A stretch of 64,000 bases of DNA from Thermoanaerobaculia bacterium. Lineage in GTDB: Bacteria > Acidobacteriota > Thermoanaerobaculia > Gp7-AA8. Of the stretch, positions 10,056 through 58,387 are shown piece by piece. The position numbers and the translations under genes were made by a program. Under the pieces are notes generated by a model, which saw nothing but the letters and a program-made list of their open reading frames with translations, was not told where the DNA came from and ran no database searches. Each line of letters starts with the position of its first letter. Within the stretch, counting starts at the first letter, position 1. The DNA lies in contig DASPHC010000146.1 in assembly GCA_035629865.1 (NCBI GenBank), positions 53,420-117,419 of the forward strand, in the 5' to 3' direction.

Positions 10056-10823
10056 ATGCCGGGTGCTGCCGGCGCCCTCTACCCTCTGTTGATCGAGCGC
10101 GAGCTCGACGCGATCCCGGCCGCGGCCCGCTCGTTCGCCGAGTCGCAGTCGGAGGAGGAGCTGTGGGTGGCCGTGGCGCGCTTCGCCGTGCTGGCGTACG
10201 CACCGTCGCAGCACGCGAAGCGGGCGGTGATGGCGGTTTGGGCCGCGCACGCGGTACGGGATTTCGCCGGTGACCGATGGGTCGATTGGATCGTCGAGTG
10301 CGCGCGCTATTCGGCGGAGAGCCGTCCGCCGTGGAGCGAGCCGCCGATTCTGGACGATCTGGCGGTTGATGAATCGCGGCTGACAGAGATCCGGGACGGC
10401 GATGCGCTGCTGATGCTCGATACGGCAAGGGCGCTGGAGCCGCTGCTGGGGGAGAAGGGGAGGGCGGCACTGCTGCGCATGCCGCTGGAGGAGTTGGGGG
10501 TGGGTGGCGAAGAGGTCAACGGGACGCTGGAGTCGCTGGTGGACCAGGCGATCGCGTCGCAAGGCGCGGTAGATGATGTGCGTGCGGTGTTCGTGGCGAT
10601 CGCGAAGCGTGAGCTCCATCCGTCCCATGAGTCCCATCAGTCCCATTCGTCCCATGGGACCTATGGGACTCTTTTGCCTTACCACCTGGCCCGAGACTAC
10701 GCCCAGACCCTGATCGCTCACGCCTACGGCCGCCGGCTGGACTACCGCACCGATGAATTTCTCGCCGCCGTCCACTACAACCTCGAACACGGCGACAATT
10801 ACGCGGAATGGAGCTTCGCCTGA
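10056..10823 (+). CDS. Hypothetical protein
   Basis: A 255-aa ORF that starts 1 nt after the preceding stop. It contains an in-frame insertion of GTCCCAT 9-mers. Confidence 0.4.
   Translation: MPGAAGALYPLLIERELDAIPAAARSFAESQSEEELWVAVARFAVLAYAPSQHAKRAVMAVWAAHAVRDFAGDRWVDWIVECARYSAESRPPWSEPPILDDLAVDESRLTEIRDGDALLMLDTARALEPLLGEKGRAALLRMPLEELGVGGEEVNGTLESLVDQAIASQGAVDDVRAVFVAIAKRELHPSHESHQSHSSHGTYGTLLPYHLARDYAQTLIAHAYGRRLDYRTDEFLAAVHYNLEHGDNYAEWSFA
10617..10668. repeat. GGGAC/GTCCC 9-mer repeat copy lying in-frame inside a CDS (encodes HPSHESHQSHSSHGTYGT)
   Basis: The stretch catgagtcccatcagtcccattcgtcccatgggacctatggga is the same unit family as at 6868, 27733 and 63961. Confidence 0.5.
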
Positions 10824-10936
10824 ATTTCGTGCAACGCAGCCTCACCAGAACGCCGGCGCGGGACGCCGCCGGTCCAGCCGACGTGACGTCGGCGCTCCGT
10901 CGCACGGACCGCACGCAGTCGCTATCCGAAACGCCG

Positions 10937-12184
10937 ATGTCTCGCGTTGGAGCGCCGACGTCGCGTCGGCTGGCGTGGCGGCGTCTCGCCGGCACTGCGG
11001 CGTCTCGCCGCCGGTTTGCTGCGCTGACACTCGCCGTTCTACTCACTGCCTGCGCCACCGCCCCACCGCCGCCCTCCCTCCCTTCCCGCATCGACGCGGC
11101 CATCGATCGGCCGACCGTCCGCCACGCGTACTGGTCGATCCTCGTGGAGGAAGCGGACGGGCGCGTCCTCTACGAGCACAATGCCGACAAGCTGAACATG
11201 CCGGCGTCGAACCGGAAGGTCTTTGCCGCGGCCACGATCGCGAACTGTCTCGGCCTCGAGACCCGGCTGCAGACGGAGATCTGGCGCGACGGTGAGGATC
11301 TGGTCCTGCGCGGCGACGGCGATCCGTCGCTCGGCTCCTGGCGTTACTACCGGGAGAATGATTTCGACGTCCTCGCACAGCAGTTGCGGGCGCAGGGCGT
11401 CACCCGCGTGCGCGACGTGATCGCCGACGTCTCGCTCTTCGACAGGATCACCATCCCCGGCTCCTGGAAACACGGGAACATCGGCAGCGACTACGCGGCG
11501 CCCGTCGATGCGCTGACCTGGGGGGAGAGCGAGGTTCCGGTCGATCGCGCCGTTCCCGACTCCGGCCTGCACGCGGCGAATGCGCTGCGCGAGGCGCTCC
11601 TCCTCCGCGACGTCGAGGTGACGGGCACCACCCGCCTGCAGACCGAGCCGCGCGTCTGGCCGGAGAAGCTGGCTGTGCTGCCGTCGCCGTTCGTCTCGCA
11701 ACTGCTGACGACGGTGCTGAAGAACAGCCACAACCTCTACACGGAGATGCTCTTGAAGCGCGCCGGCGGCGGTACGTACGAGCGCGCATTCGCCCTGGAG
11801 CGCGAGCTGCTCACTCGCGAGCTGGCCGTCAACGGCGAGTGGTTCCGCTTCGTCGACGGCTCCGGCCTCGCTCCCGACGACCTGGTCACTCCCCGGGCCA
11901 CGGTCAAGGCGCTGCGCTGGATGCACGACCCCGTCCGCCGAGGCTTCTGGTGGTCCGTTCTCGCCCAGCCGGCCAGCGAAGGGACGCTGCGCCGCCGCCT
12001 TCTCCCCCTCGAACAGCGTCTGCGAGGCAAGACCGGCACGATCAACGGAGTGAATGCGCTCTCCGGAATCCTCGAGATGCCCGGCGGAGGATTCCGCTAT
12101 TTCTGCGTCGTGGTCAACCACCACGCCGGAGATGCGGACGCGGTGGCGGTGATCGACGAGATCGTCCGGATGGTGGCCGAGTGA
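10937..12184 (+). CDS. dacB: D-alanyl-D-alanine carboxypeptidase/endopeptidase (PBP4/DacB, peptidase S13 family)
   Basis: SxxK (SNRK), SxN (SHN) and KTG (GKTGT) motifs. Lipoprotein-like signal peptide RRRFAALTLAVLLTACATA. I chose ATG 10937 over the upstream extension that overlaps the previous gene. Confidence 0.8.
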   Translation: MSRVGAPTSRRLAWRRLAGTAASRRRFAALTLAVLLTACATAPPPPSLPSRIDAAIDRPTVRHAYWSILVEEADGRVLYEHNADKLNMPASNRKVFAAATIANCLGLETRLQTEIWRDGEDLVLRGDGDPSLGSWRYYRENDFDVLAQQLRAQGVTRVRDVIADVSLFDRITIPGSWKHGNIGSDYAAPVDALTWGESEVPVDRAVPDSGLHAANALREALLLRDVEVTGTTRLQTEPRVWPEKLAVLPSPFVSQLLTTVLKNSHNLYTEMLLKRAGGGTYERAFALERELLTRELAVNGEWFRFVDGSGLAPDDLVTPRATVKALRWMHDPVRRGFWWSVLAQPASEGTLRRRLLPLEQRLRGKTGTINGVNALSGILEMPGGGFRYFCVVVNHHAGDADAVAVIDEIVRMVAE

Positions 12185-12190
12185 GAGTCC

Positions 12191-13678
12191 TCAGCGCTTG
12201 ACGAACGTCTCGCCGAAGATCGAAAGCGTCCGGACCTTCCGCTCCCCGTCCAACTCGAACTCCACCTGTTCATCCACGTCGTCGTACGTCGATTCGGCGT
12301 TGAAGACGTCGTAGTGAAAGTGGGTGAGGGGGATGGTCATGCGGCTCCACTGGAGGACGAGCTGGCCATCCACCTCCGAGATCTTCGCCGTGCCGTAGGC
12401 GCGGCTCTCGTAGTCGCCGGTGTAGCTCGCGAGGGCGTGTGTCGGCGTGGTGTTCGGGATTCTCTTCGCGAGCCGCGTTTCTTTGTCGCGTGCGTCTTTC
12501 TCGTCGTACTTGCGGTCGATCATCAGGTAGTACGGGTTCCAGTCGCGGCCGTTCTTGCCGGACAGAAGATCCGCCAGGGCGTTGCGGAGGGAGATGACGG
12601 CCATGCCGCGGCCGGAGTTGATCATCACCACGAAGCCGGCGTTGCGCTCGGGGAGGAGATCGACGTGCGTGCGAAAGCCGTTCAACGCGCCGGCATGCGA
12701 GACCAGCAGCTCGCCGCGGTAGTCCTGCACCACCCATCCCATCCCGTACGCCATCACGTTCGTTTCGGGGTTGGCGTCGCGAGCGAGGTTCTCGCGGCGG
12801 ATCACCGTATGGGGCGTCTTCGTCTCCTCCAGCACTGCCGGGTCGACGAGCTGCGTGAGGTCGTACACGCCGTTGGCGAGGTGGAAACGGATCCAGTTCC
12901 CCATGTCGCGCGCATTCGACTTGATCGCGCCGGCCGCGCCCAGGGTCGCGGTGTCGATCGGACGCTGCGGGGAGAGCCGGTCCGTCTTCCAGTCGTAGCG
13001 ATAGCCGCTGGCGTGGTCGCCGGAGTCGTTCCACTCGCGGTCGGAGATGATCGTGCGGGTCATTCCGAGCGGCTTGAAGATGCGCGCCTTCATGAATTCG
13101 TCCCACGACATCCCGGACGCGCTGGCGACTGCCTCTCCGGCGGCGATGAACGTGATGTTCTGGTACTGATACGCGCTGCGGAACGGCTTGGTGAGCTCGA
13201 CCTGGCCGATGCGGCGGATGACATCCTCGCGCGTCCACGGCGAGTTATCCCACAACGCGTCGTGGCGAGTGAGGCCCGTGCGGTGGGTGACGATGTCGCG
13301 AAGCCTGACCTGCGAGTCGGCGCACAGGTCGCTGAGGCGGAAGTAGCCGACGTGCTGGCGGACGGGATCGTCCCAGGAGAGTTTCCCGTCGCTGACCAGC
13401 ATCGCCAGTGCGGTGCTGGTGAAGGCTTTGGTGGTGGAGGCGATCTGGAAGAGGGTGTCGGGTGTGACCGCCGCGCCGCCGAGCTCTTTCACTCCGTAGC
13501 CCTGGGCGTAGATGACGCGGTCGTTTTTCACGACGGCGACGGCGGCGCCGGGGATCTGCCACGCCTTCATGGTGGAGGTCATGATTTTGTCGATCGCTTT
13601 GGCGTCGACGACGATGTGCTGGGCCGGAAGGGAAGTGGTGAGGACGCAGGTGAAGATCAGTACCGCTGCCAAACGCAT
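12191..13678 (-). CDS. Class C beta-lactamase-related serine hydrolase with a C-terminal extra domain
   Basis: Signal peptide. SxxK (STTK) and YxN (YQN) motifs. Long C-terminal extension. Confidence 0.85.
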   Translation of the reverse strand: MRLAAVLIFTCVLTTSLPAQHIVVDAKAIDKIMTSTMKAWQIPGAAVAVVKNDRVIYAQGYGVKELGGAAVTPDTLFQIASTTKAFTSTALAMLVSDGKLSWDDPVRQHVGYFRLSDLCADSQVRLRDIVTHRTGLTRHDALWDNSPWTREDVIRRIGQVELTKPFRSAYQYQNITFIAAGEAVASASGMSWDEFMKARIFKPLGMTRTIISDREWNDSGDHASGYRYDWKTDRLSPQRPIDTATLGAAGAIKSNARDMGNWIRFHLANGVYDLTQLVDPAVLEETKTPHTVIRRENLARDANPETNVMAYGMGWVVQDYRGELLVSHAGALNGFRTHVDLLPERNAGFVVMINSGRGMAVISLRNALADLLSGKNGRDWNPYYLMIDRKYDEKDARDKETRLAKRIPNTTPTHALASYTGDYESRAYGTAKISEVDGQLVLQWSRMTIPLTHFHYDVFNAESTYDDVDEQVEFELDGERKVRTLSIFGETFVKR

Positions 13679-13707
13679 CCGTTGATTGTAACCAACGAAG
13701 AGGGAAC

Positions 13708-13844
13708 GACGGGGGGCCTCCGGCGGGCGGGCCCGGCCCGCAGCGTTTGTTTTCGCGTGAACCGCGATTCGAGCGAGAGGCGCGCGTTCAGGCTAGGCCA
13801 ACAAACGCGGCGGGCCGGGCCGGCCCGCCGGAGGCCCCCCGTCG
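13708..13844. repeat. Family-1 palindromic element (roughly 140 bp; about 36-bp GC-rich stem and about 50-nt loop), copy 1
   Basis: gcctccggcgggcgggcccggcccgcagcgtttgtt pairs with aacaaacgcggcgggccgggccggcccgccggaggc. Small ORFs with MATNAAGRAGPPEA peptides in the track are artefacts of this repeat. Confidence 0.8.
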
Positions 13845-13857
13845 TCTCTCGCCGTTG

Positions 13858-14661
13858 CTACAACCGTACGATCTGATTGACAGCGGCGACGATCTTCAGC
13901 GACCGGGCCGACCGGCCGAGCGTCACTTCCGACAGCCCGTTCGACATCAGCGCCTTCTGGCCGTGCTTCTGCCACCAGCGCCCGACGAAGATCTGCTTGC
14001 CGATGCGGCCGATCACCAGCTCCCCGCTGGCGGCGCGGCCGCGGGGGCGAAGCTCGACGATCAGCAGGTCCCCGTCCTCGATTCCCTGGTCGCGCATGTT
14101 GTCGCCGCGGGCCCGGAAGACGATTTCACCCTCTTCCACCAGGTTGGGTGGGAAGGCGAGAGTTTCCTTCGACTCCTCGTTGATCGCATCGCCGTGACGG
14201 ATCTCACCAGCGGTGACGATCTGGGCCCACTCCGGACCTTCCCGCACCACACCTCCATTCCCCGGCGTGGGCTGACTGATCCTTCGGATCGGCATGCGCG
14301 GGAACGTGACCTCGGCGTGTGCGCCATCCTGCGAGCCGTTGCCTCCCAGCAGCGTCTCGGCGCGGGCGAGGATCACCTGCGCGCGATGCGCTTCCGCGCG
14401 CGCCTCGCGGATCGTGTCGGCGAGCAGCGGGACGTTGAGCGTGGAGCGTTCCGGCTCGCTCGAACGGACGGCGAGATCGGTGCCGAAGCTGATCGCCGTC
14501 AGGTCCAGCACCTGCGCGACGCGCTGCAGGATATTGATCGACACGTTGGCTCCCTTCTCGAGGGCAGCCAGGTGACGGCGGCTCACTCCGGCGAGCTTGG
14601 CGAGGCGCGCCTGGGTGAGGTTCTTTCGAATCCGGGCTTCTTTGATGGTTTCACCGAGCAT
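13858..14661 (-). CDS. CI/LexA-like repressor: XRE-type HTH plus S24 peptidase (autocleavage) domain
   Basis: N-terminal HTH LTQARLAKLAGVSRRHLAALEKG. The C-terminal S24 Ser/Lys dyad is in GDNM and IGRIGKQ. Confidence 0.8.
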   Translation of the reverse strand: MLGETIKEARIRKNLTQARLAKLAGVSRRHLAALEKGANVSINILQRVAQVLDLTAISFGTDLAVRSSEPERSTLNVPLLADTIREARAEAHRAQVILARAETLLGGNGSQDGAHAEVTFPRMPIRRISQPTPGNGGVVREGPEWAQIVTAGEIRHGDAINEESKETLAFPPNLVEEGEIVFRARGDNMRDQGIEDGDLLIVELRPRGRAASGELVIGRIGKQIFVGRWWQKHGQKALMSNGLSEVTLGRSARSLKIVAAVNQIVRL

Positions 14662-14953
14662 AAATTGGAACTTATAGGTTACTCACTGCGTGAGCGATCG
14701 GCAACACACTTCGCAACACCGGCCGGCGGCGTCAGAGTGGGACGAGTGTGCGAAGGCTCGATCGAAGAGCTGAAACAGAGACGTTCATACAAAGGCACTC
14801 TCGCACACGGAGTGACGCTCAGACACTTTTCCACCCCCTGTGGAGCGGATGAGTGTCGGGCTAGGTTGCGGCGGGATGGAAAGGAGGAAGTCCAGTGTCA
14901 CCTATGAGTTGCGCAATATCGTGCGCGTCCCGTCGACTGAGGAGCAGATCCGG

Positions 14954-14996
14954 ATTGACATCCATCCTGCTCCTCCCTATAGTGCAGGATACTGCA
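14954..14996 (+). promoter_or_regulatory. Sigma70-like promoter (TTGACA-17-TATAGT) with a palindromic operator TGCAG-GATA-CTGCA overlapping the -10, just upstream of the Cro-like gene
   Basis: Read directly from the sequence. Coordinates are accurate to about 1 nt. A second palindrome, CTCAC-TGC-GTGAG, lies around 14688-14700 in front of the divergent repressor. Confidence 0.5.
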
Positions 14997-14997
14997 C

Positions 14998-15219
14998 ATG
15001 ACTACACGTCTCGAGAAGTTCCTCAAGAGCCGGGGAATCAAGCCGGCCCACCTGGCGCGGGAGTCCGGATACAGCCGTCAGCACCTGCTGCGGATCCGGA
15101 CCGGACGGATGGAGCCGACGCGGCGCTGCATCGTGGCGATCGCATCGGCCTGCCGCCGTCTGTCCGGCGAACAGGTGCGGGCGCACGATCTCTTCGACCT
15201 CGAAGGGGAGGATGAGTAG
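14998..15219 (+). CDS. Small XRE-family HTH protein (Cro-like), divergent from the S24 repressor
   Basis: A 73-aa protein containing LARESGYSRQHLLRIRTG. Confidence 0.6.
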   Translation: MTTRLEKFLKSRGIKPAHLARESGYSRQHLLRIRTGRMEPTRRCIVAIASACRRLSGEQVRAHDLFDLEGEDE

Positions 15220-15225
15220 CAGCCA

Positions 15226-15612
15226 TTGCAGCAGGTGGAGCATAGCTCCGGGCTCGCGATGTTCACAATTCGCCGTGTCGCGGTAGTCGAAGGAAACCGC
15301 ACTGCTGGGGAAATGCTGCACACTTTCTTCCGCCTGATGGAGCTGGAGTGCTCCCTGGTGCGCGCCGGTTTCGAGGCCGTTCCCACGCTCCGTAGACTTC
15401 GCCCCGACGTCGTGATCCTCGATCTGGACCTCCCACATCTACAGGCGCTGGAGATCGCACGCGGAATCCGCAGCTTCGAGCCCGGCCTGCCGGTGGTCCT
15501 GCTCACTGACCGCGAGCCCGAAATGGTTGCCTTCGACGCCCCGGTCCTGCGAAAACCGCACGACCGGTTCGAGGAACTGCTTGGGTTACTGGAAGTGATG
15601 CTGCGGCTCTAG
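15226..15612 (+). CDS. Stand-alone response-regulator receiver-domain protein (degenerate acidic pocket)
   Basis: VVILDLDLP has the phospho-acceptor Asp and RKP the conserved Lys. The N-terminal DD is replaced by VVEGN. The start may instead be ATG 15259. Confidence 0.5.
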   Translation: MQQVEHSSGLAMFTIRRVAVVEGNRTAGEMLHTFFRLMELECSLVRAGFEAVPTLRRLRPDVVILDLDLPHLQALEIARGIRSFEPGLPVVLLTDREPEMVAFDAPVLRKPHDRFEELLGLLEVMLRL

Positions 15613-15619
15613 TCGCCGT

Positions 15620-15666
15620 TCATCGCTCATCTCTCGCTCATCTCTCATCTCTCATCTCTCATCTCT
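15620..15666. repeat. Heptanucleotide microsatellite (TCATCTC) x 5
   Basis: ctcatctctcgctcatctctcatctctcatctctcatctctg lies between the receiver gene and the next gene's start. Confidence 0.6.
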
Positions 15667-15755
15667 GTCTTCTCCACTGTTCACCATTCCGTCACTAACC
15701 ACTCACCACCCTTTGCGTACTTACGAACGACTTCGTAGCAAAGTTGGGGGTGTTC

Positions 15756-17972
15756 ATGAAGCGAGCTGCCTGCGTTGCGTTCCTTCTTCTGTCCGTCGTC
15801 CGTCCGTCCGCCGCCCAGCCGGTTGTCCTCGCGCCGACCGAAGCAGCCATCCAGATCGACGGAAACCTCAGCGATGCTGTCTGGCAGAACGCCACGAAAT
15901 ACGAGATCTGGTACGAGACCAATCCGGGCGACAACATCGAGCCGAGCGTGAAAACAGTCGGCTACGTCACCTACGACAGCCGTTTCCTCTACTTCGGCGT
16001 CGAATCGATCGACCCGAATCCCGGCGCGATCAGCGCCCCCTTCGCCGACCACGACCAGATCAGCGGCAACACCGACGACTACGTCGGCGTCCTGCTCGAC
16101 ACCCGCAACGACGGGAAGAGCGGCTATCTCTTTCTTCTCACCGCGCGCGGCGTGCAGTACGACGCCATCACCGACGACGCCGGGAACGGCGAGGACAACT
16201 CACCCGACTTCTTCTGGGACTCGGAGGCGCGCATCCATGAGAAAGGGTGGACCGCGGAAGCGCGCATCCCCTTCTCCTCTCTGCGCTACGACGGTGCCAG
16301 CCCGGAGCAGTGGGGGCTGATGCTCTACCGCAACTACCCGCGCGACCGCCGTTATCAGATGTTCACCAACAAGCTGCCACGCGACAAGAGCTGCTTCGTC
16401 TGCAGTTGGGGGAAGGTCACCGGCCTGCGCGGCCTGCCGACCGGCGACCACATGGTCATCGCCCCCTACGCGACGGCGAACCAGGTCGGGCAGCCGCGCG
16501 ACGAGGTGCTCGGCAATGAGTTCGTGAACCGCCCCGTCGGCGCCGAGGCGGGGCTCGACTTCAAATGGAGCCCGACCGCCGACATGGCCGTCGACGCGAC
16601 GATCAATCCCGACTTCTCGCAGATCGAATCCGACGTCGCGGTGATCTCGACCAACGAGCGTTTCGCCATCTTCATCCCGGAGAAGCGGCCCTTCTTCCTC
16701 GAAGGAGTCGACCTCTTCTCCACCCCCATCCAGGCCGTCTACACCCGCACCATCACCGCGCCGCGCTGGGGCGCGCGCACGACCGGCAAGACCGGCGATT
16801 ACGCCTACACGCTGCTGGTCGCGCAGGACCGCGGGGGCGGCGACGTCATTCTGCCGTCGGCCTTCGGCTCCGACTTCGCGCAGCAGGACTTTTCGTCGCT
16901 CGCCGCGATCGGCCGCCTGCGCCGCGACTTCGGCCAGCGCTCGCACGTCAGCTTCCTCGCCACGACCCGCGAGGCCGAAGGGGGCGCCCACAACCGCGTC
17001 TTCGGTCCCGACTTCCAGTGGCGCATTAACGACAACGACACCCTCACCGGCCAGGTGCTCTACAGCAGCACCCAGAACCCGGACCGCCCCGATCTCAGCG
17101 ACCAGTGGACCGGCCAGAAGCGCGGCGGCCACGCCGCGCACATGTGGTTCTCCCACAACACCGCCAAGAACGACTTTTACGTGCAGGGGAGCGACTACGA
17201 CGGGGAGTTCCGCGCCGATAACGGCTTCGTACCGCAGGTCGGCTGGCGCGGCGGCTACATGGAAGGGGGCCACACCTGGCGCCCCAAGGGGTTCTTCAGC
17301 CGCGTCCGCGCCTTCGGCATGACCGAGTACCAGCAGACGCAGGGCGGCGACCTGCTGTATCGCCTCATGTCGGCCGGCATCGCCGGCGACGGGAAGCGCC
17401 GTTCCTTCACCCGCATCCGCCTGGCGAAAGACTCGGTGGCCGCCGGCATCGGCGAGGTCTTCGACCGCGACCGCATCTATTACCAGGTGCAGTTCGCCGT
17501 CAGCCGCGTCATCAGCTTCCTCAGCTTCGACGGCTGGGTCGGCGACGAAGTCGACTTCTCCCAGAACCGCCTCGGCCGCGGCGCGAGCGTCAACAGCAGC
17601 GCCACCCTCCGCCCCTCGAACCACCTCCAGCTCGGCCTCACCTCCGGCATCCGCTGGCTCAACATCGACGGCGACCGCCTCTTCACCTCCCAGGTCGAAC
17701 GCCTCCGCGCCACCTACACCTTCAACCCCCGCATGTTCGTCCGCGCCATCGTCCAGAACGAGCGCACCAACCGCGACCAGGCCCTCTACGGCTTCGGCCC
17801 CCAATACACCGGCGGCCTCGCCGCCCAAGGCCTCTTCGCCTACAAACTGAACTGGCAGACCGTCTTCTACGTCGGCTTCGGCGACCTCCGCGAAGTAACG
17901 ACCGAGGAAGGGGAGTTCGAGCCCAGCAGCCGGCAGTTCTTCGCGAAGATCAGTTACGCGTTCCAGAGGTAA
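15756..17972 (+). CDS. Secreted CBM9-like/DUF5916-type protein (putative outer-membrane or exported hydrolase-like)
   Basis: Signal peptide MKRAACVAFLLLSVVRPSAAQ. The N-terminal IDGNLSDAVWQNATKYEIWYE is CBM9-like. Family assignment is from memory. Confidence 0.55.
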   Translation: MKRAACVAFLLLSVVRPSAAQPVVLAPTEAAIQIDGNLSDAVWQNATKYEIWYETNPGDNIEPSVKTVGYVTYDSRFLYFGVESIDPNPGAISAPFADHDQISGNTDDYVGVLLDTRNDGKSGYLFLLTARGVQYDAITDDAGNGEDNSPDFFWDSEARIHEKGWTAEARIPFSSLRYDGASPEQWGLMLYRNYPRDRRYQMFTNKLPRDKSCFVCSWGKVTGLRGLPTGDHMVIAPYATANQVGQPRDEVLGNEFVNRPVGAEAGLDFKWSPTADMAVDATINPDFSQIESDVAVISTNERFAIFIPEKRPFFLEGVDLFSTPIQAVYTRTITAPRWGARTTGKTGDYAYTLLVAQDRGGGDVILPSAFGSDFAQQDFSSLAAIGRLRRDFGQRSHVSFLATTREAEGGAHNRVFGPDFQWRINDNDTLTGQVLYSSTQNPDRPDLSDQWTGQKRGGHAAHMWFSHNTAKNDFYVQGSDYDGEFRADNGFVPQVGWRGGYMEGGHTWRPKGFFSRVRAFGMTEYQQTQGGDLLYRLMSAGIAGDGKRRSFTRIRLAKDSVAAGIGEVFDRDRIYYQVQFAVSRVISFLSFDGWVGDEVDFSQNRLGRGASVNSSATLRPSNHLQLGLTSGIRWLNIDGDRLFTSQVERLRATYTFNPRMFVRAIVQNERTNRDQALYGFGPQYTGGLAAQGLFAYKLNWQTVFYVGFGDLREVTTEEGEFEPSSRQFFAKISYAFQR

Positions 17973-17980
17973 CAGGGAAC

Positions 17981-18118
17981 GACGGGAGGCCTCCGGCGGG
18001 CCGGCACGGCCGGCAGCGTTTGTTTCCGCGTGAATCGCGTTTCGAGCGAGAAGCGCGCGCTCAGCCTATGGCAACCAACGCTGCCGGCCGTGCCGGCCCG
18101 CCGGAGGCCTCTCGTCGT
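17981..18118. repeat. Family-1 palindromic element, copy 2
   Basis: Same arms and loop as copy 1. It explains the spurious N-terminal extension of ORF 18020. Confidence 0.8.
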
Positions 18119-18142
18119 CCCTACTCGTATACTTCCGCGCGC

Positions 18143-20206
18143 ATGAAACGCGCTCTGCTCCTCCTCCTCACCCTGACCCTCGCCGCCTGCGCCACCTCGA
18201 AGCCGCCGCAGGCGCCGCCACCGCCGCGGCCTCGGGCGTTGCTTGGGGCGCATGGGTTCGAGCTTTCGCAGGTGGATCGGACCGTGAGCCCCTGCGACAA
18301 CTTCTATCAGTACGCGACGGGCGGGTGGCAGAAGGCGCATCCGTTGCCGTCGACGTATGCGCGGTACGGGCGGTTCGAGGAGGTGGCGGAGCGGAACCGG
18401 GAGACGTTGCGGGCGATCCTCGAGAGCGCGGCGGCCGAGAAGGCGTCCGAGGCGGGGAGCAATACCCAGAAGCTCGGTGATTTCTGGGGGGCGTGCATGA
18501 ATGAGGCGGCGATCGAGACGGAGGGGATTGCGCCGATCCGGGGCGATCTCGATCGCATCAACGCGATCAACAGCCGTGCGGACGTCGTCGCGGAGCTGCA
18601 CCGGCAGCATCAGAAAGGAGTGGCGCCGCTCTTCCGCTTCTCCGCGCAGAACGATTACAAGAATTCGAAGATGATCATCGCCGCGGTCTCGCAGGGCGGC
18701 CTCGGCCTGCCGGACCGGGAGTACTACCTGCGCGTTGACGAGAAGTCGAAGAACTTCCGGAAAGAGTACGTCGCGCATCTCACGCGGATGTTCGAGCTGG
18801 CGGGGCTCGACGCGGCGAAGGCGGCCACGGATGCGGAGCGGGTGATGGCGCTGGAGACGCAACTGGCGCGCGCGTCGATGGCCCGCGTCGACCAGCGCAA
18901 GCCGGAGAACACGTACCACATCACTCCAGTCTCGGACCTGCAGGCCGACACGCCGCTGCTCAACTGGCCGGCGTTCTTCAGCGGCGTCGGGCTGCCGGAG
19001 CTTGCGTCGATCAACCTCGCGCAGCCGGAGTACATCCGCGAGGCGCACCGTCTGCTCGACGAGGCGGCGCTGGAGTCGTGGAAGGCGTACCTCCGCTGGA
19101 ACGTCCTCGACGCGGCGGCACCGCTGCTCTCGACGCCGTTCGTGAACCAGGACTTTGCCTTCCGCCAGACCATCCTCACCGGGACGAAGGAGATCCAGCC
19201 GCGCTGGCAGCGCTGCATCCGCGCCGCGGATCAGAACCTCGGCGAGGTGCTGGGACAGGAGTATGTGAACCGCGCCTTCACCGCCGAGGCGAAGACGAAG
19301 ATGAACGAGCTGATCGACAATCTCGTCGGCGCGTTGCGGGAAGGGATCCCCGCGCTCGGCTGGATGGGGCCGGAGACGAAGACGACGGCGCTGGCGAAGC
19401 TCGAGGCGTTCCGGCGGCGCATCGGCTATCCGGACAAATGGATCGACCTCTCCACGCTGAACGTCGGCCGCGGCTCGTACGCGGAGAATGTCTTCGCGAC
19501 GCGCGCGTTCAACGTTCGCCGCACCGCCGGCCGGATCGGCAAGCCGGACGATCCGAACGAGTGGGGGAACTTCACGCCGTCGACGGTCAACGCGAGCTAC
19601 AGCCCGAGCCGCAACAACATCACGTTCCCCGCGGGCATCCTCCAGCCTCCGTTCTACGACCCGAACGCCGACGACGCGTACAACTACGGCGGCATCGGCA
19701 CGGTGATCGGGCACGAGATGACGCACGGCTTCGACGATCAGGGGGCCAAGTTCGACCCGGAAGGGAATCTGCGCAACTGGTGGTCGGCGAAGGATCTCGA
19801 GAACTTCCAGGCCCGCGCGGAGTGCATCGCGAAGCAGTACGGCGCATGGCAGGTGGAGGACAACCTGACGCTGCAGGGCGAACTGGTGACCGGCGAGGCG
19901 ATCGCCGATCTCGGCGGCGCGACGCTCGCGCTGCGCGCCTACCAGAAATCGCTCGCCGGCCAGCCGCGCACGACCGTCGACGGCTACACCCCCGAGCAGC
20001 GTTTCTTCCTCGGCTTCGCCCAGGTATGGGGCCAGAACATGGCCACCGAGGAAGCCCGCCGCCGCGCGCTTACCGATCCGCACGCGCCGGGCCCGGCGCG
20101 CGTGAACCTGACCGTCTCCAACATGCCCGAGTTCGCGGACGCCTGGAACTGCGTCGCCAGCTCGAAGTTGGTGCGGGCGACTGAGCAGAGGTGCACGATC
20201 TGGTGA
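18143..20206 (+). CDS. pepO: M13 family zinc metallopeptidase (neprilysin/PepO-like) lipoprotein
   Basis: HEXXH zinc-binding motif in GHEMTHGFD. GEAIADLGG carries the family's EXXXD glutamate. The C-terminus ends in W. Lipoprotein signal MKRALLLLLTLTLAACA. Confidence 0.9.
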   Translation: MKRALLLLLTLTLAACATSKPPQAPPPPRPRALLGAHGFELSQVDRTVSPCDNFYQYATGGWQKAHPLPSTYARYGRFEEVAERNRETLRAILESAAAEKASEAGSNTQKLGDFWGACMNEAAIETEGIAPIRGDLDRINAINSRADVVAELHRQHQKGVAPLFRFSAQNDYKNSKMIIAAVSQGGLGLPDREYYLRVDEKSKNFRKEYVAHLTRMFELAGLDAAKAATDAERVMALETQLARASMARVDQRKPENTYHITPVSDLQADTPLLNWPAFFSGVGLPELASINLAQPEYIREAHRLLDEAALESWKAYLRWNVLDAAAPLLSTPFVNQDFAFRQTILTGTKEIQPRWQRCIRAADQNLGEVLGQEYVNRAFTAEAKTKMNELIDNLVGALREGIPALGWMGPETKTTALAKLEAFRRRIGYPDKWIDLSTLNVGRGSYAENVFATRAFNVRRTAGRIGKPDDPNEWGNFTPSTVNASYSPSRNNITFPAGILQPPFYDPNADDAYNYGGIGTVIGHEMTHGFDDQGAKFDPEGNLRNWWSAKDLENFQARAECIAKQYGAWQVEDNLTLQGELVTGEAIADLGGATLALRAYQKSLAGQPRTTVDGYTPEQRFFLGFAQVWGQNMATEEARRRALTDPHAPGPARVNLTVSNMPEFADAWNCVASSKLVRATEQRCTIW

Positions 20207-25688: not shown

Positions 25689-25695
25689 ACAGGGG

Positions 25696-25837
25696 ACGAC
25701 GGGAGGCCTCCGGCGGGCGGGCCCGGCCCGCGGCGTTTGTTTTTCGCGTAAACCGCGTTCCGTACGAAGGCGCGCGTTCAGCCTATGGCAACCAACGCTG
25801 CGGGCCGGGCCCGCCCGCCGGAGGCCCCCCGTCGTCC
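25696..25837. repeat. Family-1 palindromic element, copy 3
   Basis: Same family. Confidence 0.8.
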
Positions 25838-37007: not shown

Positions 37008-37050
37008 GGAGATTTCGCGTGCAACACGTGTTCCGGGCGAGACGCGAGGA

Positions 37051-37193
37051 GACGACGGGAGGCGTCCGGCGGGCGAGCACGGCCCGCTGCGTTTGTTTTC
37101 GCCCGGACCGTGTTCGAGCGACAGGCATGCGTTCAGGCTAGGCCAACAAACGCCGCGGGCCGAGCCCGCCCGCCGGAGGCCCCCCGGTCGTCT
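37051..37193. repeat. Family-1 palindromic element, copy 4
   Basis: Same family. Confidence 0.8.
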
Positions 37194-37205
37194 CTCGTCT
37201 GACCC

Positions 37206-39557
37206 TTACTCCACCTCGTACGTCACGCTGTCCGAGCGTCCGATGTCGTCGACCACCACCACCCGGTGCGTGCCGCGGGCGGGGCGGACGAAGGCGCGGC
37301 GGGTGGGGGGGAGGGAGGCGATGAGGGTGCCGTCGACGTACCAGTAGAGGCGGTTCACCTCGGCGGGGACCTGGGCCTGGAGGAGGATCTCCTGGTAGTC
37401 GATCGGCGCGTCTCCACGGATGCGGTACGGCGTGGTGGCGTCGGGGGAGACGATGCGGGGCGCTTCGTCGGCCGCAACTTCGCTGCAGGCGGCGCTGAGC
37501 GGCGGCATCCCTTCCACGGCCTGCCCCTGCGCGTGCCAGTAGGCGACCAGCTCGGCGGGGTAGACCACCGAGATCTCCGGCTCGTGCGGCCGTGTCGCGA
37601 CGCACTCGCCGGCGAGACGCTCGCGGGTGGTGCGGTCGACGAGGATCCGGCGGTGGTAGGTGCAGCGGCGGAGCTGGGTGCGCTCGGGGATGTAGGGGAT
37701 GGCGATCGTCTTCGCGCAGTCGGGGCCGGGGAGCTCGTGGCTCAGCGCGCAGACGTCGACGCGCTCGATGTCCGCGTACTTCGTGTCGGGACGCGCGGCG
37801 CGGCCTTCGATCGTCCGGAAAAGGTCGAAGAGCAGCGGGGCGGCGTGCTCGGAGCCGGAGATCCCTTTCTGGCCGCGGCCGTCGAAGTTTCCGACCCAGA
37901 CTCCGATCGTGTAGCGCTTCGAGAAGCCGACGCTCCAGGCGTCGCGGTGACCGTACGACGTCCCCGTCTTCCACGCCACGGTCGGCGCTTCTCTCGTGAG
38001 ATCCCATGTCTGCGGGAGGTCGGGGCGTTTCACTTCGCACAGGATCTCGGTGATCATCTGCGACGCCTCGGCGGAGAAGATCCGCTCCCCCTCCGGGGCC
38101 GGTCCGCGGAACATTTGCGCAGGCCGGTGCACGCCTCCCTCGGCGAGGGTGCTGTAGAAGTTGGTCAGGTCGAGCAGCGTGACTTCGCCCGCGCCGAGGA
38201 TCAGCGAGAGGCCGTAGGAACCGGGACGCCGGTCGAGCGTGGAGAGGCCGCCTTTGCGCAGGACGCCGAGAAAGTCGTCGAGACCGACCCGCGCCAGCAG
38301 CCGGACCGCGCTGGCGTTGAGGGAGAGCACCAGAGACTCGCGAACCGTCAGGCGGCCGCGATAGGTGCCGTCGTAGTTCTCGGCGACGTAGCCGGAAAAG
38401 TCGGTGGGGATGTCGAGGAGGTACGAGTCGGGCAGCAGGTGCCCTTCGTCGAACGCCTTCGCGTAGAGGAACGGTTTGAGGGTCGAGCCGGGAGAGCGGC
38501 GGGCGAAGGCGCCGTTGACCTGGCCGTCGAAGCGGCGGTCGAAGAAGTCGGCGGAGCCGACGAGGGCGCGGACGGTGCGGCTCTCGTTCTCGATCACGAC
38601 CACCGCGGCGTTCTCGATGCCGAACGTCCGGAGGGAGCCGATTCGCGCCGCGACCTGCCGTTCGGCGATCTTCTGGAGTCCCTGGTCGAGGGTCGTGAAG
38701 AGACGCGGCGCGCCGCCGCCGCGGGCGACGGCGAGGTCGGTGAAGTGCGGCGCCGTAAACGGCGTGCGCTGCAAGCGGGTGGGGATCGGCTGCAGCAGCG
38801 CTTTCTCGATCTCGGCCGGGGGAAAAGCGCCGCGGCTGCCGAGCTGGCGCAGCACTTCGTCGCGCGCGGCACGGGCCTGTTTCGGATCGCGCAGCGGGTC
38901 GTAGCGATTCGGCGAGCGGGGGAGCGTGGTCAGGAGGGCGATCTCGCCGAGGGAAAGCTGGGAGGGCTTCTTCCCGAAGTAGAAGTACGAGGCCGCGCCG
39001 ATCCCTTCGATGTTCCGGCCGTAGGGAGCGATGTTGATGTAGATCTCGAGCAGCTCGCGCTTCGAGTAGCGCCGCGACAACTGCAGCGCGCGGAACGCCT
39101 CGATCCCTTTGGAGCGGAGGCTGCGCCGCTTCGGCTCGGCCATCCGCGCGATCTGCATCGGGATGGTGGACGCGCCCGAGACGACGCCGCGCGCGCGCAG
39201 GTTCGTCCACGACGCGCGCACGACTGCCAGCGGGTTGACGCCCGGATGCCGGTAGTACCAGCGATCCTCGGAGGCGACGAGCGCCGCGATCAGTTCCGGC
39301 GGCACCTCGTCGAGCGTCACCGGAATCCGGTACTTTTCGTCGCGCGGCAGCACGATGCGAAGCTCCCGCCCTTCACGGTCATAGATCACGGTGGCGGGCG
39401 GAGGGCGGAGCGCGTGGATGGGCGGCGGAAAGACAACGTCTGCGATGAAGGTAGAAAGCAGAAGGCAGAAGGCAGAAGTGAGAAGGATCGCGCAGCGCTT
39501 TGTGCGAGCGCTGCTTCCTTCTGCCTTCTGCCTTCTGACTTCTGCCTTGATTCTCAT
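37206..39557 (-). CDS. pbpC: Penicillin-binding protein 1C (transglycosylase-transpeptidase)
   Basis: Transglycosylase motif EDRWYYRHPGVN. Transpeptidase motifs STLKP, SLN and KTGTS. The ATG overlaps the upstream stop (ATGA). The track's 1180-aa ORF is an artefactual 5' extension. Confidence 0.9.
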   Translation of the reverse strand: MRIKAEVRRQKAEGSSARTKRCAILLTSAFCLLLSTFIADVVFPPPIHALRPPPATVIYDREGRELRIVLPRDEKYRIPVTLDEVPPELIAALVASEDRWYYRHPGVNPLAVVRASWTNLRARGVVSGASTIPMQIARMAEPKRRSLRSKGIEAFRALQLSRRYSKRELLEIYINIAPYGRNIEGIGAASYFYFGKKPSQLSLGEIALLTTLPRSPNRYDPLRDPKQARAARDEVLRQLGSRGAFPPAEIEKALLQPIPTRLQRTPFTAPHFTDLAVARGGGAPRLFTTLDQGLQKIAERQVAARIGSLRTFGIENAAVVVIENESRTVRALVGSADFFDRRFDGQVNGAFARRSPGSTLKPFLYAKAFDEGHLLPDSYLLDIPTDFSGYVAENYDGTYRGRLTVRESLVLSLNASAVRLLARVGLDDFLGVLRKGGLSTLDRRPGSYGLSLILGAGEVTLLDLTNFYSTLAEGGVHRPAQMFRGPAPEGERIFSAEASQMITEILCEVKRPDLPQTWDLTREAPTVAWKTGTSYGHRDAWSVGFSKRYTIGVWVGNFDGRGQKGISGSEHAAPLLFDLFRTIEGRAARPDTKYADIERVDVCALSHELPGPDCAKTIAIPYIPERTQLRRCTYHRRILVDRTTRERLAGECVATRPHEPEISVVYPAELVAYWHAQGQAVEGMPPLSAACSEVAADEAPRIVSPDATTPYRIRGDAPIDYQEILLQAQVPAEVNRLYWYVDGTLIASLPPTRRAFVRPARGTHRVVVVDDIGRSDSVTYEVE

Positions 39558-53459: not shown

Positions 53460-53468
53460 CGGCGCAAG

Positions 53469-53514
53469 AGAACCGACCGGGAGGCCTCCGGCGGGCCGGC
53501 CCGGTCGGTTTCTC
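53469..53514. repeat. Short hairpin sharing the terminal motif of family 1 (gggaggcctccggcgggccgg)
   Basis: gagaaccgaccggg...cccggtcggtttctc. Confidence 0.5.
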
Positions 53515-55772: not shown

Positions 55773-55917
55773 GGACGACGAAGGGCCTCCGGCGGGCGGG
55801 CACGGCCCGCAGCGTTGGTTGCCATAGGCTGAACGCACGCTTCTCGCGCTGAACGCGGTCCGGGCGAAAACAAACGCTGCGGGCCGTGCCCGCCCGCCGG
55901 AGGCCCCCTCGTCGTCC
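55773..55917. repeat. Family-1 palindromic element, copy 6 (inverted orientation)
   Basis: The loop reads as the reverse complement of the other copies. The flanks extend the palindrome (cacccacccggggacgacg / cgtcgtcccgggtgggtgg). Confidence 0.8.
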
Positions 55918-55933
55918 CGGGTGGGTGGAGCGG

Positions 55934-58236: not shown

Positions 58237-58387
58237 GGAAACCGACGAGAAGCCTCCGGCGGGCCGGCACGGCCGGCAGCGTTTGTTTTCGCCCGGACCG
58301 TGTTCCGTGAGAGAGCGCGCGTTCAGCCTTGGGCAACCAACGCTGCCGGCCGTGCCGGCCCGCCGGAGGCCTCCCGTCGGTTTCCTG
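58237..58387. repeat. Family-1 palindromic element, copy 7
   Basis: Same family. It lies between the two paralogs. Confidence 0.8.

Follow-up and report, generated by a model that had tools for sequence, protein, structure and literature searches.

A CI/Cro-like repressor module with a predicted pseudo-peptidase S24 domain and a receiver gene in Thermoanaerobaculia

How does a repressor pair laid out like CI and Cro of phage λ work on a bacterial chromosome if its repressor no longer carries the residues for self-cleavage? The question is raised by positions 13858–15612 of a 64,000-nucleotide stretch of a soil Thermoanaerobaculia bacterium (GCA_035629865.1, contig DASPHC010000146.1); this whole 64-kb stretch is called the window below. 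Here, an open reading frame (ORF) for a 267-amino acid (aa) protein with an XRE-type helix-turn-helix (HTH) and an S24 domain (13858..14661, minus strand; Pfam HTH_3 and Peptidase_S24) is divergent from an ORF for a small, 73-aa HTH protein of Cro/C1 type (14998..15219, plus strand; Pfam HTH_26), and a third ORF encodes a stand-alone receiver of 128 aa (15226..15612, plus strand; Pfam Response_reg). An initial annotation of the locus had described a CI/Cro-like divergent pair, and we confirm this: a long repressor that joins an HTH to a C-terminal domain of S24 type stands opposite a Cro-sized HTH protein across an intergenic region of 336 bp (14662–14997). It had also called the repressor autocleavable and suggested an SOS-responsive switch with RecA-dependent cleavage, and neither of these readings is supported, since residues N188, G227 and H156-G157 stand where LexA has S119, K156 and A84-G85, and the Ser/Lys dyad, the check named in advance, proved to be lost on alignment.

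The 267-aa protein has an exact counterpart (100% identity) in a Thermoanaerobaculia (Acidobacteriota) metagenome-assembled genome (MAG). It matches HTH_3 with 46.5 bits and Peptidase_S24 (PF00717) with 33.8 bits against a cut-off of 23.3, and it matches LexA chains in the PDB at E = 1.8e-6 (HMMER). In the HMMER alignment with LexA C-domains, the stretch RARGDNMRDQGI pairs with LexA RVRGMSMKDIGI, and IFVGRWW pairs with VTVKRF. Residues were tallied over 120 relatives (657 sequence clusters were found in all), using E. coli LexA and λ CI as reference sequences for numbering in MAFFT alignments. The position of the LexA nucleophile Ser119 is occupied by Asn188 (codon 14098..14100, minus strand; GDNM against GMSM by HMMER), in a column that holds N in 54, S in 30, A in 15, G in 11, D in 9 and E in 1 of the relatives. 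The position of the general base Lys156 is occupied by Gly227 (codon 13981..13983, minus strand; VGRWW against VKRL), and it is Gly in 120 of 120 relatives and also in distant copies of the module. The cleavage bond Ala84-Gly85 corresponds to His156-Gly157 (codons 14191..14196, minus strand; MAFFT and local-pair alignment), its first position being His in 113 relatives and Gln in 7. The alignment register is sound because the closest catalytic relatives retain AAG, GDSM and VKRW, and a local-pair alignment that includes catalytic relatives reproduces it, with GEVAAG against GEIRHG. That alignment falls into two groups: one, of distant relatives, keeps all three signatures (VAAG, GDSM or GESM, and V-K-R-W), and the other, which includes the family of the window protein, reads G-R-[WYF]-W and varies at the "Ser" position.

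The fold itself appears to be kept. The S24-like beta domain without catalytic residues (aa 145–262; 13876..14229, minus strand) is recognized by its matches to LexA C-domains both in sequence and in Foldseek, where the best PDB matches of an AlphaFold2 model are the C-domains of LexA, λ CI and UmuD′, with TM-scores (target-relative) of up to 0.73. The model has a mean predicted local distance difference test score (pLDDT) of 66.7, with 73–86 in the beta domain. Its N-terminal XRE-type HTH domain (aa 1–55; 14497..14661, minus strand; Pfam residues 6–55), with the recognition helix VSRRHLAALEKG, is modeled as four helices at pLDDT 80–88, and Foldseek matches it to SinR and C.BclI at a root-mean-square deviation of ~1 Å. 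A long helix (residues 77–105) is followed by low-confidence linkers; those at aa 106–142 are predicted to be disordered, yet they hold the invariant residues F120, P121, P124 and R126. The loop at the LexA cleavage region, G152-E153-I154-R155-H156-G157, is nearly invariant among relatives. Judged by these alignments, the S24 domain is a pseudo-peptidase that keeps its fold while the nucleophile Ser, the base Lys and the scissile Ala-Gly are all replaced. With all three lost, RecA-stimulated self-cleavage should be impossible for the 267-aa protein, and no self-inactivation by this route is expected.

This bears on how the family is labeled, since some sources call relatives "SOS-response transcriptional repressor LexA" or "antitoxin HipB". 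The window holds no canonical lexA gene, and a tblastn search of it with E. coli LexA returned the S24-protein gene only. SOS regulons inferred from LexA-type annotations of this family in Acidobacteriota would be wrong. A toxin–antitoxin reading was rejected, as the adjacent genes encode an HTH protein and a receiver, with no toxin gene by Pfam; the NCBIfam similarities of the module are weak, to HipB/Y4mF antitoxins only and below the cut-offs.

If the repressor is not released by cleavage, what would the two HTH proteins act on? The promoter of the HTH and receiver genes, P_H (14955..14983, plus strand; promoter scan), consists of TTGACA, a 17-nt spacer and TATAGT. This is the consensus-type promoter of the initial annotation; it agrees with the consensus at 11 of 12 positions, no other such site occurs in 13600–15800 (shuffled sequences gave a mean of 0.4), and its TTGACA is invariant over 75 loci. 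The promoter of the S24-protein gene, P_X, lies below the threshold of the promoter scan and was placed from the sequence together with the invariant GCAAC and GTTAC blocks. It is putatively formed by TTGCCG (reverse complement of 14699–14704), 17 nt and TAACCT (reverse complement of 14676–14681), thus spanning 14676..14704 on the minus strand, with TATAAG as an alternative -10; the GCAAC block near 14702, conserved in the intergenic alignment, is inferred to be part of its -35. From these promoter positions, both mRNAs would have leaders of ~7–8 nt and no Shine-Dalgarno sequence.

Alignment of 75 unique intergenic regions (with position counts taken over 74 unique loci) places a putative palindromic operator at each promoter. 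O_X (GGAACTTATAGGTTAC, 14667..14682; family consensus AGTAAC-N6-GTTACT) lies 10–20 bp before the ATG of the repressor gene, with at most one mismatch, in 70 of the 74 loci, its columns are nearly invariant, and it likely overlaps the -10 region and start site of the repressor-gene promoter. O_H1 (GTGCAGGATACTGCAC, 14982..14997; GTGCA-N6-TGCAC) extends from the end of the -10 hexamer of P_H up to the base that precedes the HTH ATG; it abuts this ATG in 69 of the 74 loci, again with at most one mismatch, and is the only perfect site in the window. The palindrome first noticed as overlapping this promoter, TGCAG-N4-CTGCA (TGCAGGATACTGCA, 14983–14996; one copy in 64 kb versus 0.02 expected), is there but is only the core of the conserved GTGCA-N6-TGCAC, and because its inner G and C are not conserved the true half-site is (G/A)TGCA. 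The GTGAG/CACTC palindromes that had been noted near the repressor start correspond to CTCAC-N3-GTGAG (CTCACTGCGTGAG, 14682..14694; one copy versus 0.09 expected in 64 kb). This one is specific to the genome, the equivalent positions being non-palindromic in the other 11 aligned loci, and it is therefore probably not a functional operator. Recurrence of either palindrome had been proposed as a way to define a regulon, but neither is found again within the window and so no regulon is shown there; scans of the 64 kb for TGCAG-N4-CTGCA, CTCAC-N3-GTGAG, GTGCA-N6-TGCAC and GTAAC-N6-GTTAC (at most one mismatch) gave no meaningful recurrence, the one extra match, at 38117, having a GC-rich spacer and lying at chance level.

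A second putative site of the O_H type, O_H2 (GCGCAATATCGTGCGC, 14911..14926), is centered ~71 bp upstream of O_H1. Its core, GCA-NN-AT-NN-TGC, has two matches in 64 kb, both in this intergenic region, although the pattern was derived from those two; O_H2-type sites with at least 7 of the 8 specified bases occur in 64 of the 75 regions, versus 4% expected by chance. The distance between the O_H2 and O_H1 centers is 58–60 bp in 9 regions, 70–71 bp in 29, 82–84 bp in 3, 93–94 bp in 22 and 126 bp in 1, so that it varies by clade in steps of ~11 bp, roughly one helical turn, and the two sites therefore keep the same angular relation. Such phasing fits cooperative binding or looping by an oligomeric protein, and it would equally fit a class I-like activator position.

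Midway in the intergenic region lies a conserved central block of ~50 bp (CTCGCAnAnGGnGTGACG-N9/10-TTTCCACCCCnnGTGGA, 14796..14845), which has many columns at least 90% conserved in the 75-locus alignment, occurs once in the window and is missing from compact distant loci. As RNA, neither the block nor the 336-bp region comes near the Rfam thresholds, and RNAalifold on 70 sequences gives only a 4-bp hairpin; the block carries no coding signal. Several other candidates were rejected here: sigma-54 or extracytoplasmic function (ECF)-type promoters, whose spacings do not fit by eye; a CACTC...GAGTG inverted repeat, which is lost in clades B and C (described below) with no compensatory changes seen; and two small intergenic ORFs (14679–14834, minus strand; 14840–15001, plus strand), whose frames are broken by indels and whose start codons are lost in related loci.

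The small HTH protein matches HTH_26 with 25.3 bits against a cut-off of 22 and has the recognition helix YSRQHLLRIR and an acidic C-terminal tail, LFDLEGEDE. Its family comprises 631 sequence clusters, with 84–100% identity among the 120 listed. BLASTP found no similarity between the HTH domain of the S24 protein and the small HTH protein, which fits the presence of two operator types.

The receiver ORF is co-oriented with the small HTH gene and starts 7 nt past its stop codon, at a conserved TTG with GGAGG 14 nt upstream, inside the 3′ end of the HTH gene. This start and the N-terminal extension that follows are conserved among related loci, and on this arrangement the receiver is best regarded as translationally coupled to the small HTH; gene callers differ here, giving products of 99, ~119 or ~130 aa. 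The protein matches Response_reg with 44.3 bits against a cut-off of 30.2, over profile positions 1–85 of 111, and belongs to a family of 288 sequence clusters. The initial annotation had called it degenerate, which is correct in part. The Mg2+-binding pair (CheY D12/D13) is E22-G23, the D13 position being Gly in 113 of 121 relatives, and on sequence comparison the stretch at CheY alpha-4 is ~15 residues shorter, with a shortened helix alpha-4. On the other side, the phospho-acceptor Asp (position of Asp66) and the Thr/Ser are each kept in 121 of 121 relatives and the Lys in 111 of 121. Within the gene, codons 27–32 (GCT GGG GAA ATG CTG CAC; 15304..15321, plus strand) have frozen synonymous sites, with a third-position identity of 0.96–1.00 over 30 loci versus ~0.5–0.8 elsewhere in the gene, and in the same 30 loci the synonymous positions of the first 14 codons (15226–15267) are almost fully conserved too. 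These may reflect a DNA- or RNA-level element or constraint within the coding sequence. A third O_H site at codons 27–32 is possible, but its spacer would be 7 nt rather than 6.

A scan of genomes gave 13 related loci, 12 of them titled Thermoanaerobaculia or Acidobacteriota, and a metagenome scan gave 80 more. The divergent pair is present in every locus with enough upstream DNA (tblastn), 11 from genomes and ~80 from metagenomes, which amounts to ~90 Thermoanaerobaculia loci, with no phage genes seen; the flanking genes are syntenic in ~40. The S24 protein, small HTH and receiver have similarly narrow distributions (657, 631 and 288 sequence clusters), and the small HTH is better conserved, at 78–92% identity versus 52–80% for the S24 protein. 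Three clades can be distinguished by gene order: in clade A, which includes the window, the HTH gene is followed by the receiver and then by a gene for an M13 peptidase; clade B is without the receiver and has the M13 gene after the S24-domain gene; and clade C, also without the receiver, has it after the HTH gene in some loci. The module is thus chromosomal and is inherited along with its flanking genes.

More distant copies have kept the same plan in other surroundings. The repressors P0133 (locus L094), P0134 (L096, GCA_035546335.1) and P0142 (L099) are 31–36% identical to the window protein and show the Lys to Gly change in all three cases. Their neighboring genes are unrelated to those of the window and include no M13 gene, but each repressor is again divergent from a small HTH gene, which in each locus overlaps a receiver gene. 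In L094 the small HTH is 72% identical to that of the window, with the SRQHLLR helix intact, while its partner repressor is only 31% identical. The receivers of L096 and L099 keep the canonical residues (EDD or DDD, Asp, Ser and Lys). Since the distant copies all carry a receiver, with canonical residues in these two, the receiver is an ancestral part of the module that has partly degenerated in the clade of the window and has been lost in clades B and C. O_H1-type sites are found in L094 and L096, and O_X is present as an identical site in L096 and as the variants AGTCAC-TTATAC-GTGACT in L099 and AGTCAC-GTAA-GTTACT in L094. In the compact distant loci O_X lies only ~25 bp from the -35 of the HTH promoter. 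A still more distant Lys to Gly relative, P0181, is divergent from a 74-aa gene that is followed by a Mu-type transposase, a context which hints at a phage origin of the module.

We consider it reasonably probable that the locus is a chromosomal two-repressor module of CI/Cro-like layout which works without proteolysis and takes its input through the receiver. The dead S24 domain would then serve dimerization or oligomerization, and perhaps the docking of a partner through the near-invariant GEIRHG loop. The two HTH proteins would repress two near-leaderless promoters through two 16-bp palindromes, with cooperative binding at the O_H sites along one face of the helix. The signal would not be DNA damage but would arrive through the co-transcribed receiver, and as the receiver is canonical in distant copies and partly degenerate here, the input could be either phosphorylation or protein–protein contact. 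The wiring could be mutual repression, that is a toggle, or two self-repressing loops. A more ambitious version seems to us rather improbable: in it, the S24 domain has become a reversible docking or sensing domain, the receiver links an unlinked histidine kinase to both HTH proteins, and the resulting three-component switch, derived from the immunity region of a Mu-like phage, has become fixed in Thermoanaerobaculia and in distant lineages.

Several observations weigh against a receiver-fed, two-repressor module. The receiver is missing in two of the Thermoanaerobaculia clades, and in the clade of the window it lacks one Mg-binding Asp and helix alpha-4, so that phospho-signaling may have been lost here. 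The initial annotation had suggested that the switch might control the receiver, which is consistent with the co-orientation and 7-nt spacing, but with the receiver missing in two of three clades it is not the sole output. O_H2, at about -60, -71, -82 or -94, occupies the classical positions of a class I (CRP-type) activator, and looping is not required. The strongly conserved 50-bp central block has no place in this scheme. All of the organisms are uncultured MAGs. Finally, the evidence on operator assignment points in two directions. The phasing of the O_H sites suggests that the S24-domain protein binds there and would thus repress the HTH-receiver operon, and a toggle would be complete with the small HTH bound to O_X, whereas covariation across four lineages suggests the opposite assignment, with each protein at its own promoter.

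This covariation leads to what is, in our estimate, a possible but unlikely alternative, namely two independent self-repressors that share one intergenic region, with the XRE-S24 protein at O_X, the small HTH at O_H1/O_H2, and no cross-talk between them. Each palindrome does sit at a single promoter, and the sequences of the two HTH domains are unrelated. O_X changes (AGTAAC, AGTCAC) along with the recognition helix of the repressor (SRRH, SKRQ, SVRH; in full VSRRHLAALEKG, ISKRQLAAIENG in L099 and VSVRHISSIESG in L094), and the TGCA half-sites of O_H and the helix of the small HTH are both constant across the four lineages. With four lineages only, however, this covariation is anecdotal. Moreover, the genes are divergent and adjacent in every locus examined, even amid entirely different neighbors, which argues for functional coupling of the two, and the ~25 bp between O_X and the HTH -35 in compact loci means that occupancy of one site should affect the other promoter.

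A module without any proteolysis is also challenged by a second alternative, which we rate as improbable: the repressor might be inactivated in trans, in response to a signal, by a protease that cuts its conserved disordered linker, whether a catalytic S24 paralogue, Lon or Clp, or an ImmA/IrrE-type metalloprotease. The invariant residues within the linkers at aa 106–142 and the near-invariance of the GEIRHG loop would suit such a mechanism, and XRE repressors that a trans-acting protease inactivates are known. ImmR with ImmA is one such pair. DdrO with IrrE is another (PMC8533742). Against this, no protease gene is conserved within the module. The M13 peptidase of the flank, with what by eye we take to be a signal peptide and a lipobox, would act outside the cytoplasm, and the distant loci are without an M13 gene.

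Very little speaks for the two remaining alternatives. Self-cleavage of the S24 protein triggered by RecA* after DNA damage, with the small HTH and receiver thereby de-repressed, is very improbable: the architecture and divergent layout resemble λ CI/Cro and Streptococcus mutans IrvR/IrvA (PMC7101444) and the S24 fold is retained, but Asn at Ser119 (in a column of N, S, A, G, D and E), Gly at Lys156 in all 120 relatives and His-Gly in place of Ala-Gly stand against it, and the equivalent changes S224A and K260A in IrvR abolish cleavage (PMC7101444). A decaying immunity region of a prophage or mobile element without present host function is just as improbable. The layout is phage-like and distant Lys to Gly S24-like relatives do lie beside the 74-aa gene and Mu-type transposase, but the three ORFs are intact, the module occurs with its flanking genes in ~90 loci, the small HTH is 84–100% identical among the 120 listed relatives, the operators are conserved, and no phage genes lie within ~5 kb of the module.

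By comparison with known systems, the module as we read it is closest in layout to CI/Cro of λ (and of 434 and P22), where an HTH-linker-S24-fold repressor is likewise divergent from an HTH protein of ~70 aa and palindromic operators lie over both promoters; multiple operators are present in both cases, and cooperative binding is plausible. Unlike λ, the module is without the catalytic Ser, the Lys and the Ala-Gly bond and hence without RecA-dependent induction, it has two different palindromes (O_X and O_H) in place of one shared tripartite operator, it is chromosomal and kept with flanking genes outside a prophage, and it has an extra receiver gene in the "Cro" operon.

Chromosomal XRE-HTH and S24 repressors beside the gene that they repress are also known in IrvR/IrvA of S. 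mutans and PrlP of S. suis, the latter of nearly the same length (266 aa). These lie outside the SOS regulon, and Ala-Gly self-cleavage by a Ser/Lys dyad is their control step (PMC7101444, PMC12273997), whereas the Thermoanaerobaculia protein has lost the Ser, the Lys and the Ala-Gly site. A precedent for a non-cleaving S24-domain repressor is LexA of Synechocystis sp. PCC 6803. In this protein the Ala-Gly site and the catalytic Ser are both gone and no cleavage takes place; its targets are non-SOS genes, which it seems to control by way of post-translational modification (PMC7567884). It differs in having a winged-helix DNA-binding domain, in keeping the Lys and in lacking a small HTH or receiver partner. 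The non-canonical LexA proteins of Bacteroidetes combine a CI-like N-terminal domain with S24 and have a host role and a probable phage origin; unlike the module, they are reported to run a canonical DNA-damage response (PMC8565304). The repressor c/Ner/transposase region of phage Mu resembles the P0181 locus, with its 74-aa gene and Mu-type transposase, although the link is a single locus at the level of protein and gene order, and the window module is without transposase or phage genes.

Each of these closest known systems shares some features with the module, but none joins an XRE HTH to a dead S24 domain and also has a receiver and a fixed partner of the small-HTH type. In the literature searched on S24 pseudo-peptidases and on modules of an HTH with a single-domain receiver we found no description of this module family. 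In a whole clade, ~650 sequence clusters in Thermoanaerobaculia plus distant relatives, the protease chemistry appears to be gone, whereas fold, partner gene and operators have been retained. If it is true that the receiver feeds the switch, this would be a new wiring of a CI/Cro-type circuit to two-component signaling instead of RecA. The module is compact, a natural circuit of two repressors whose promoters are near-leaderless and whose operators are well defined, as two palindromes of 16 bp with phased sites, and it is suited to E. coli reporters.

The surroundings of the module in the window are chromosomal and not those of a phage. Pfam scanning of four neighbors (10808–13678 and 15756–17972) identified an S13 D-Ala-D-Ala carboxypeptidase, a class C beta-lactamase-like protein and a DUF5916/CBM9 protein; the gene at 18020–20206 (also delimited as 18143–20206), outside that scan, we label by eye as the M13 peptidase, presumably a lipoprotein-type product with a signal peptide and the lipobox MKRALLLLLTLTLAAC. 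No phage structural genes are found among these neighboring genes (the M13 gene again judged by eye), which agrees with the initial annotation, where they had been said to be absent. The suggestion made there that the switch is domesticated has the non-phage chromosomal context in its favor, and domestication itself is plausible because a distant Lys to Gly relative adjoins the Mu-type transposase.

Among the 38 unique loci whose flanks reach 1.5 kb or more in both directions, 35 have the M13 gene in the flank; in 34 loci it lies 29–1633 nt past the module, on the same strand as the module gene that it follows. This persistent adjacency makes the M13 peptidase a candidate target, though only a candidate, as it follows different module genes by clade, has repeat hairpins between it and the module and is missing in the distant lineages; a search for operator-like sites (at most one mismatch) in front of the M13 gene found none. 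Where related clade-A loci have long flanks (19 loci), the receiver is directly followed by M13 in the same orientation, usually 400–800 nt past the HTH gene. In the window the DUF5916/CBM9 gene (15756–17972) and a repeat element separate the two, and this gene looks like a genome-specific insertion beside one repeat copy. The receiver–M13 spacer of related loci (L001, L004, L006, L017, L035 and others) is hypervariable and consists of locus-specific palindromic arrays of 7–8-nt tandem repeats, for example (GGTTGCC)n opposite (GGCAACC)n or (GAGTCTCA)n opposite (TGAGACTC)n. Such arrays would form long hairpins, of which the window appears to retain one arm only.

The repeat element just mentioned is a GC-rich palindromic interspersed repeat of ~150 bp, similar to repetitive extragenic palindromic (REP) sequences or miniature inverted-repeat transposable elements (MITEs), with arms of 46 nt that are 96% complementary. 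Six copies are present in the window (13690–13855, 17971–18122, 25691–25836, 37046–37197, 55774–55918 and 58243–58379), with 83–89% identity, plus a fragment at 53468–53504; the two copies that were checked are intergenic, and two copies flank the block of XRE-S24, HTH, receiver and DUF5916 genes. The repeat is not in the 13 related genome loci, and its only Rfam match is a non-significant one to the h2cR small RNA (20 bits versus a threshold of 70).

We also note some minor features of the operators and their surroundings. In clade B (L008, L009, L046, L053 and others), a third, O_H-like palindrome, GTGCGGAATCCTGCAC, lies ~20–40 nt past the HTH stop codon; its left half doubles as the 3′ arm of a hairpin, the 5′ arm of which varies by locus with the pairing kept, and a conserved GACGCGAATNGGAGGCA motif lies further downstream. 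Over-extended repressor calls (P0127, P0135 and the ORF at 2974–3807 in L090) begin with VTYRLL or VTYKLL, which is the O_X palindrome GTAACNTATARGTTAC read in frame and can serve as an operator marker in protein databases. In the window, a (CTCATCT)n-like microsatellite occupies 15617–15666, 3′ of the receiver stop codon.

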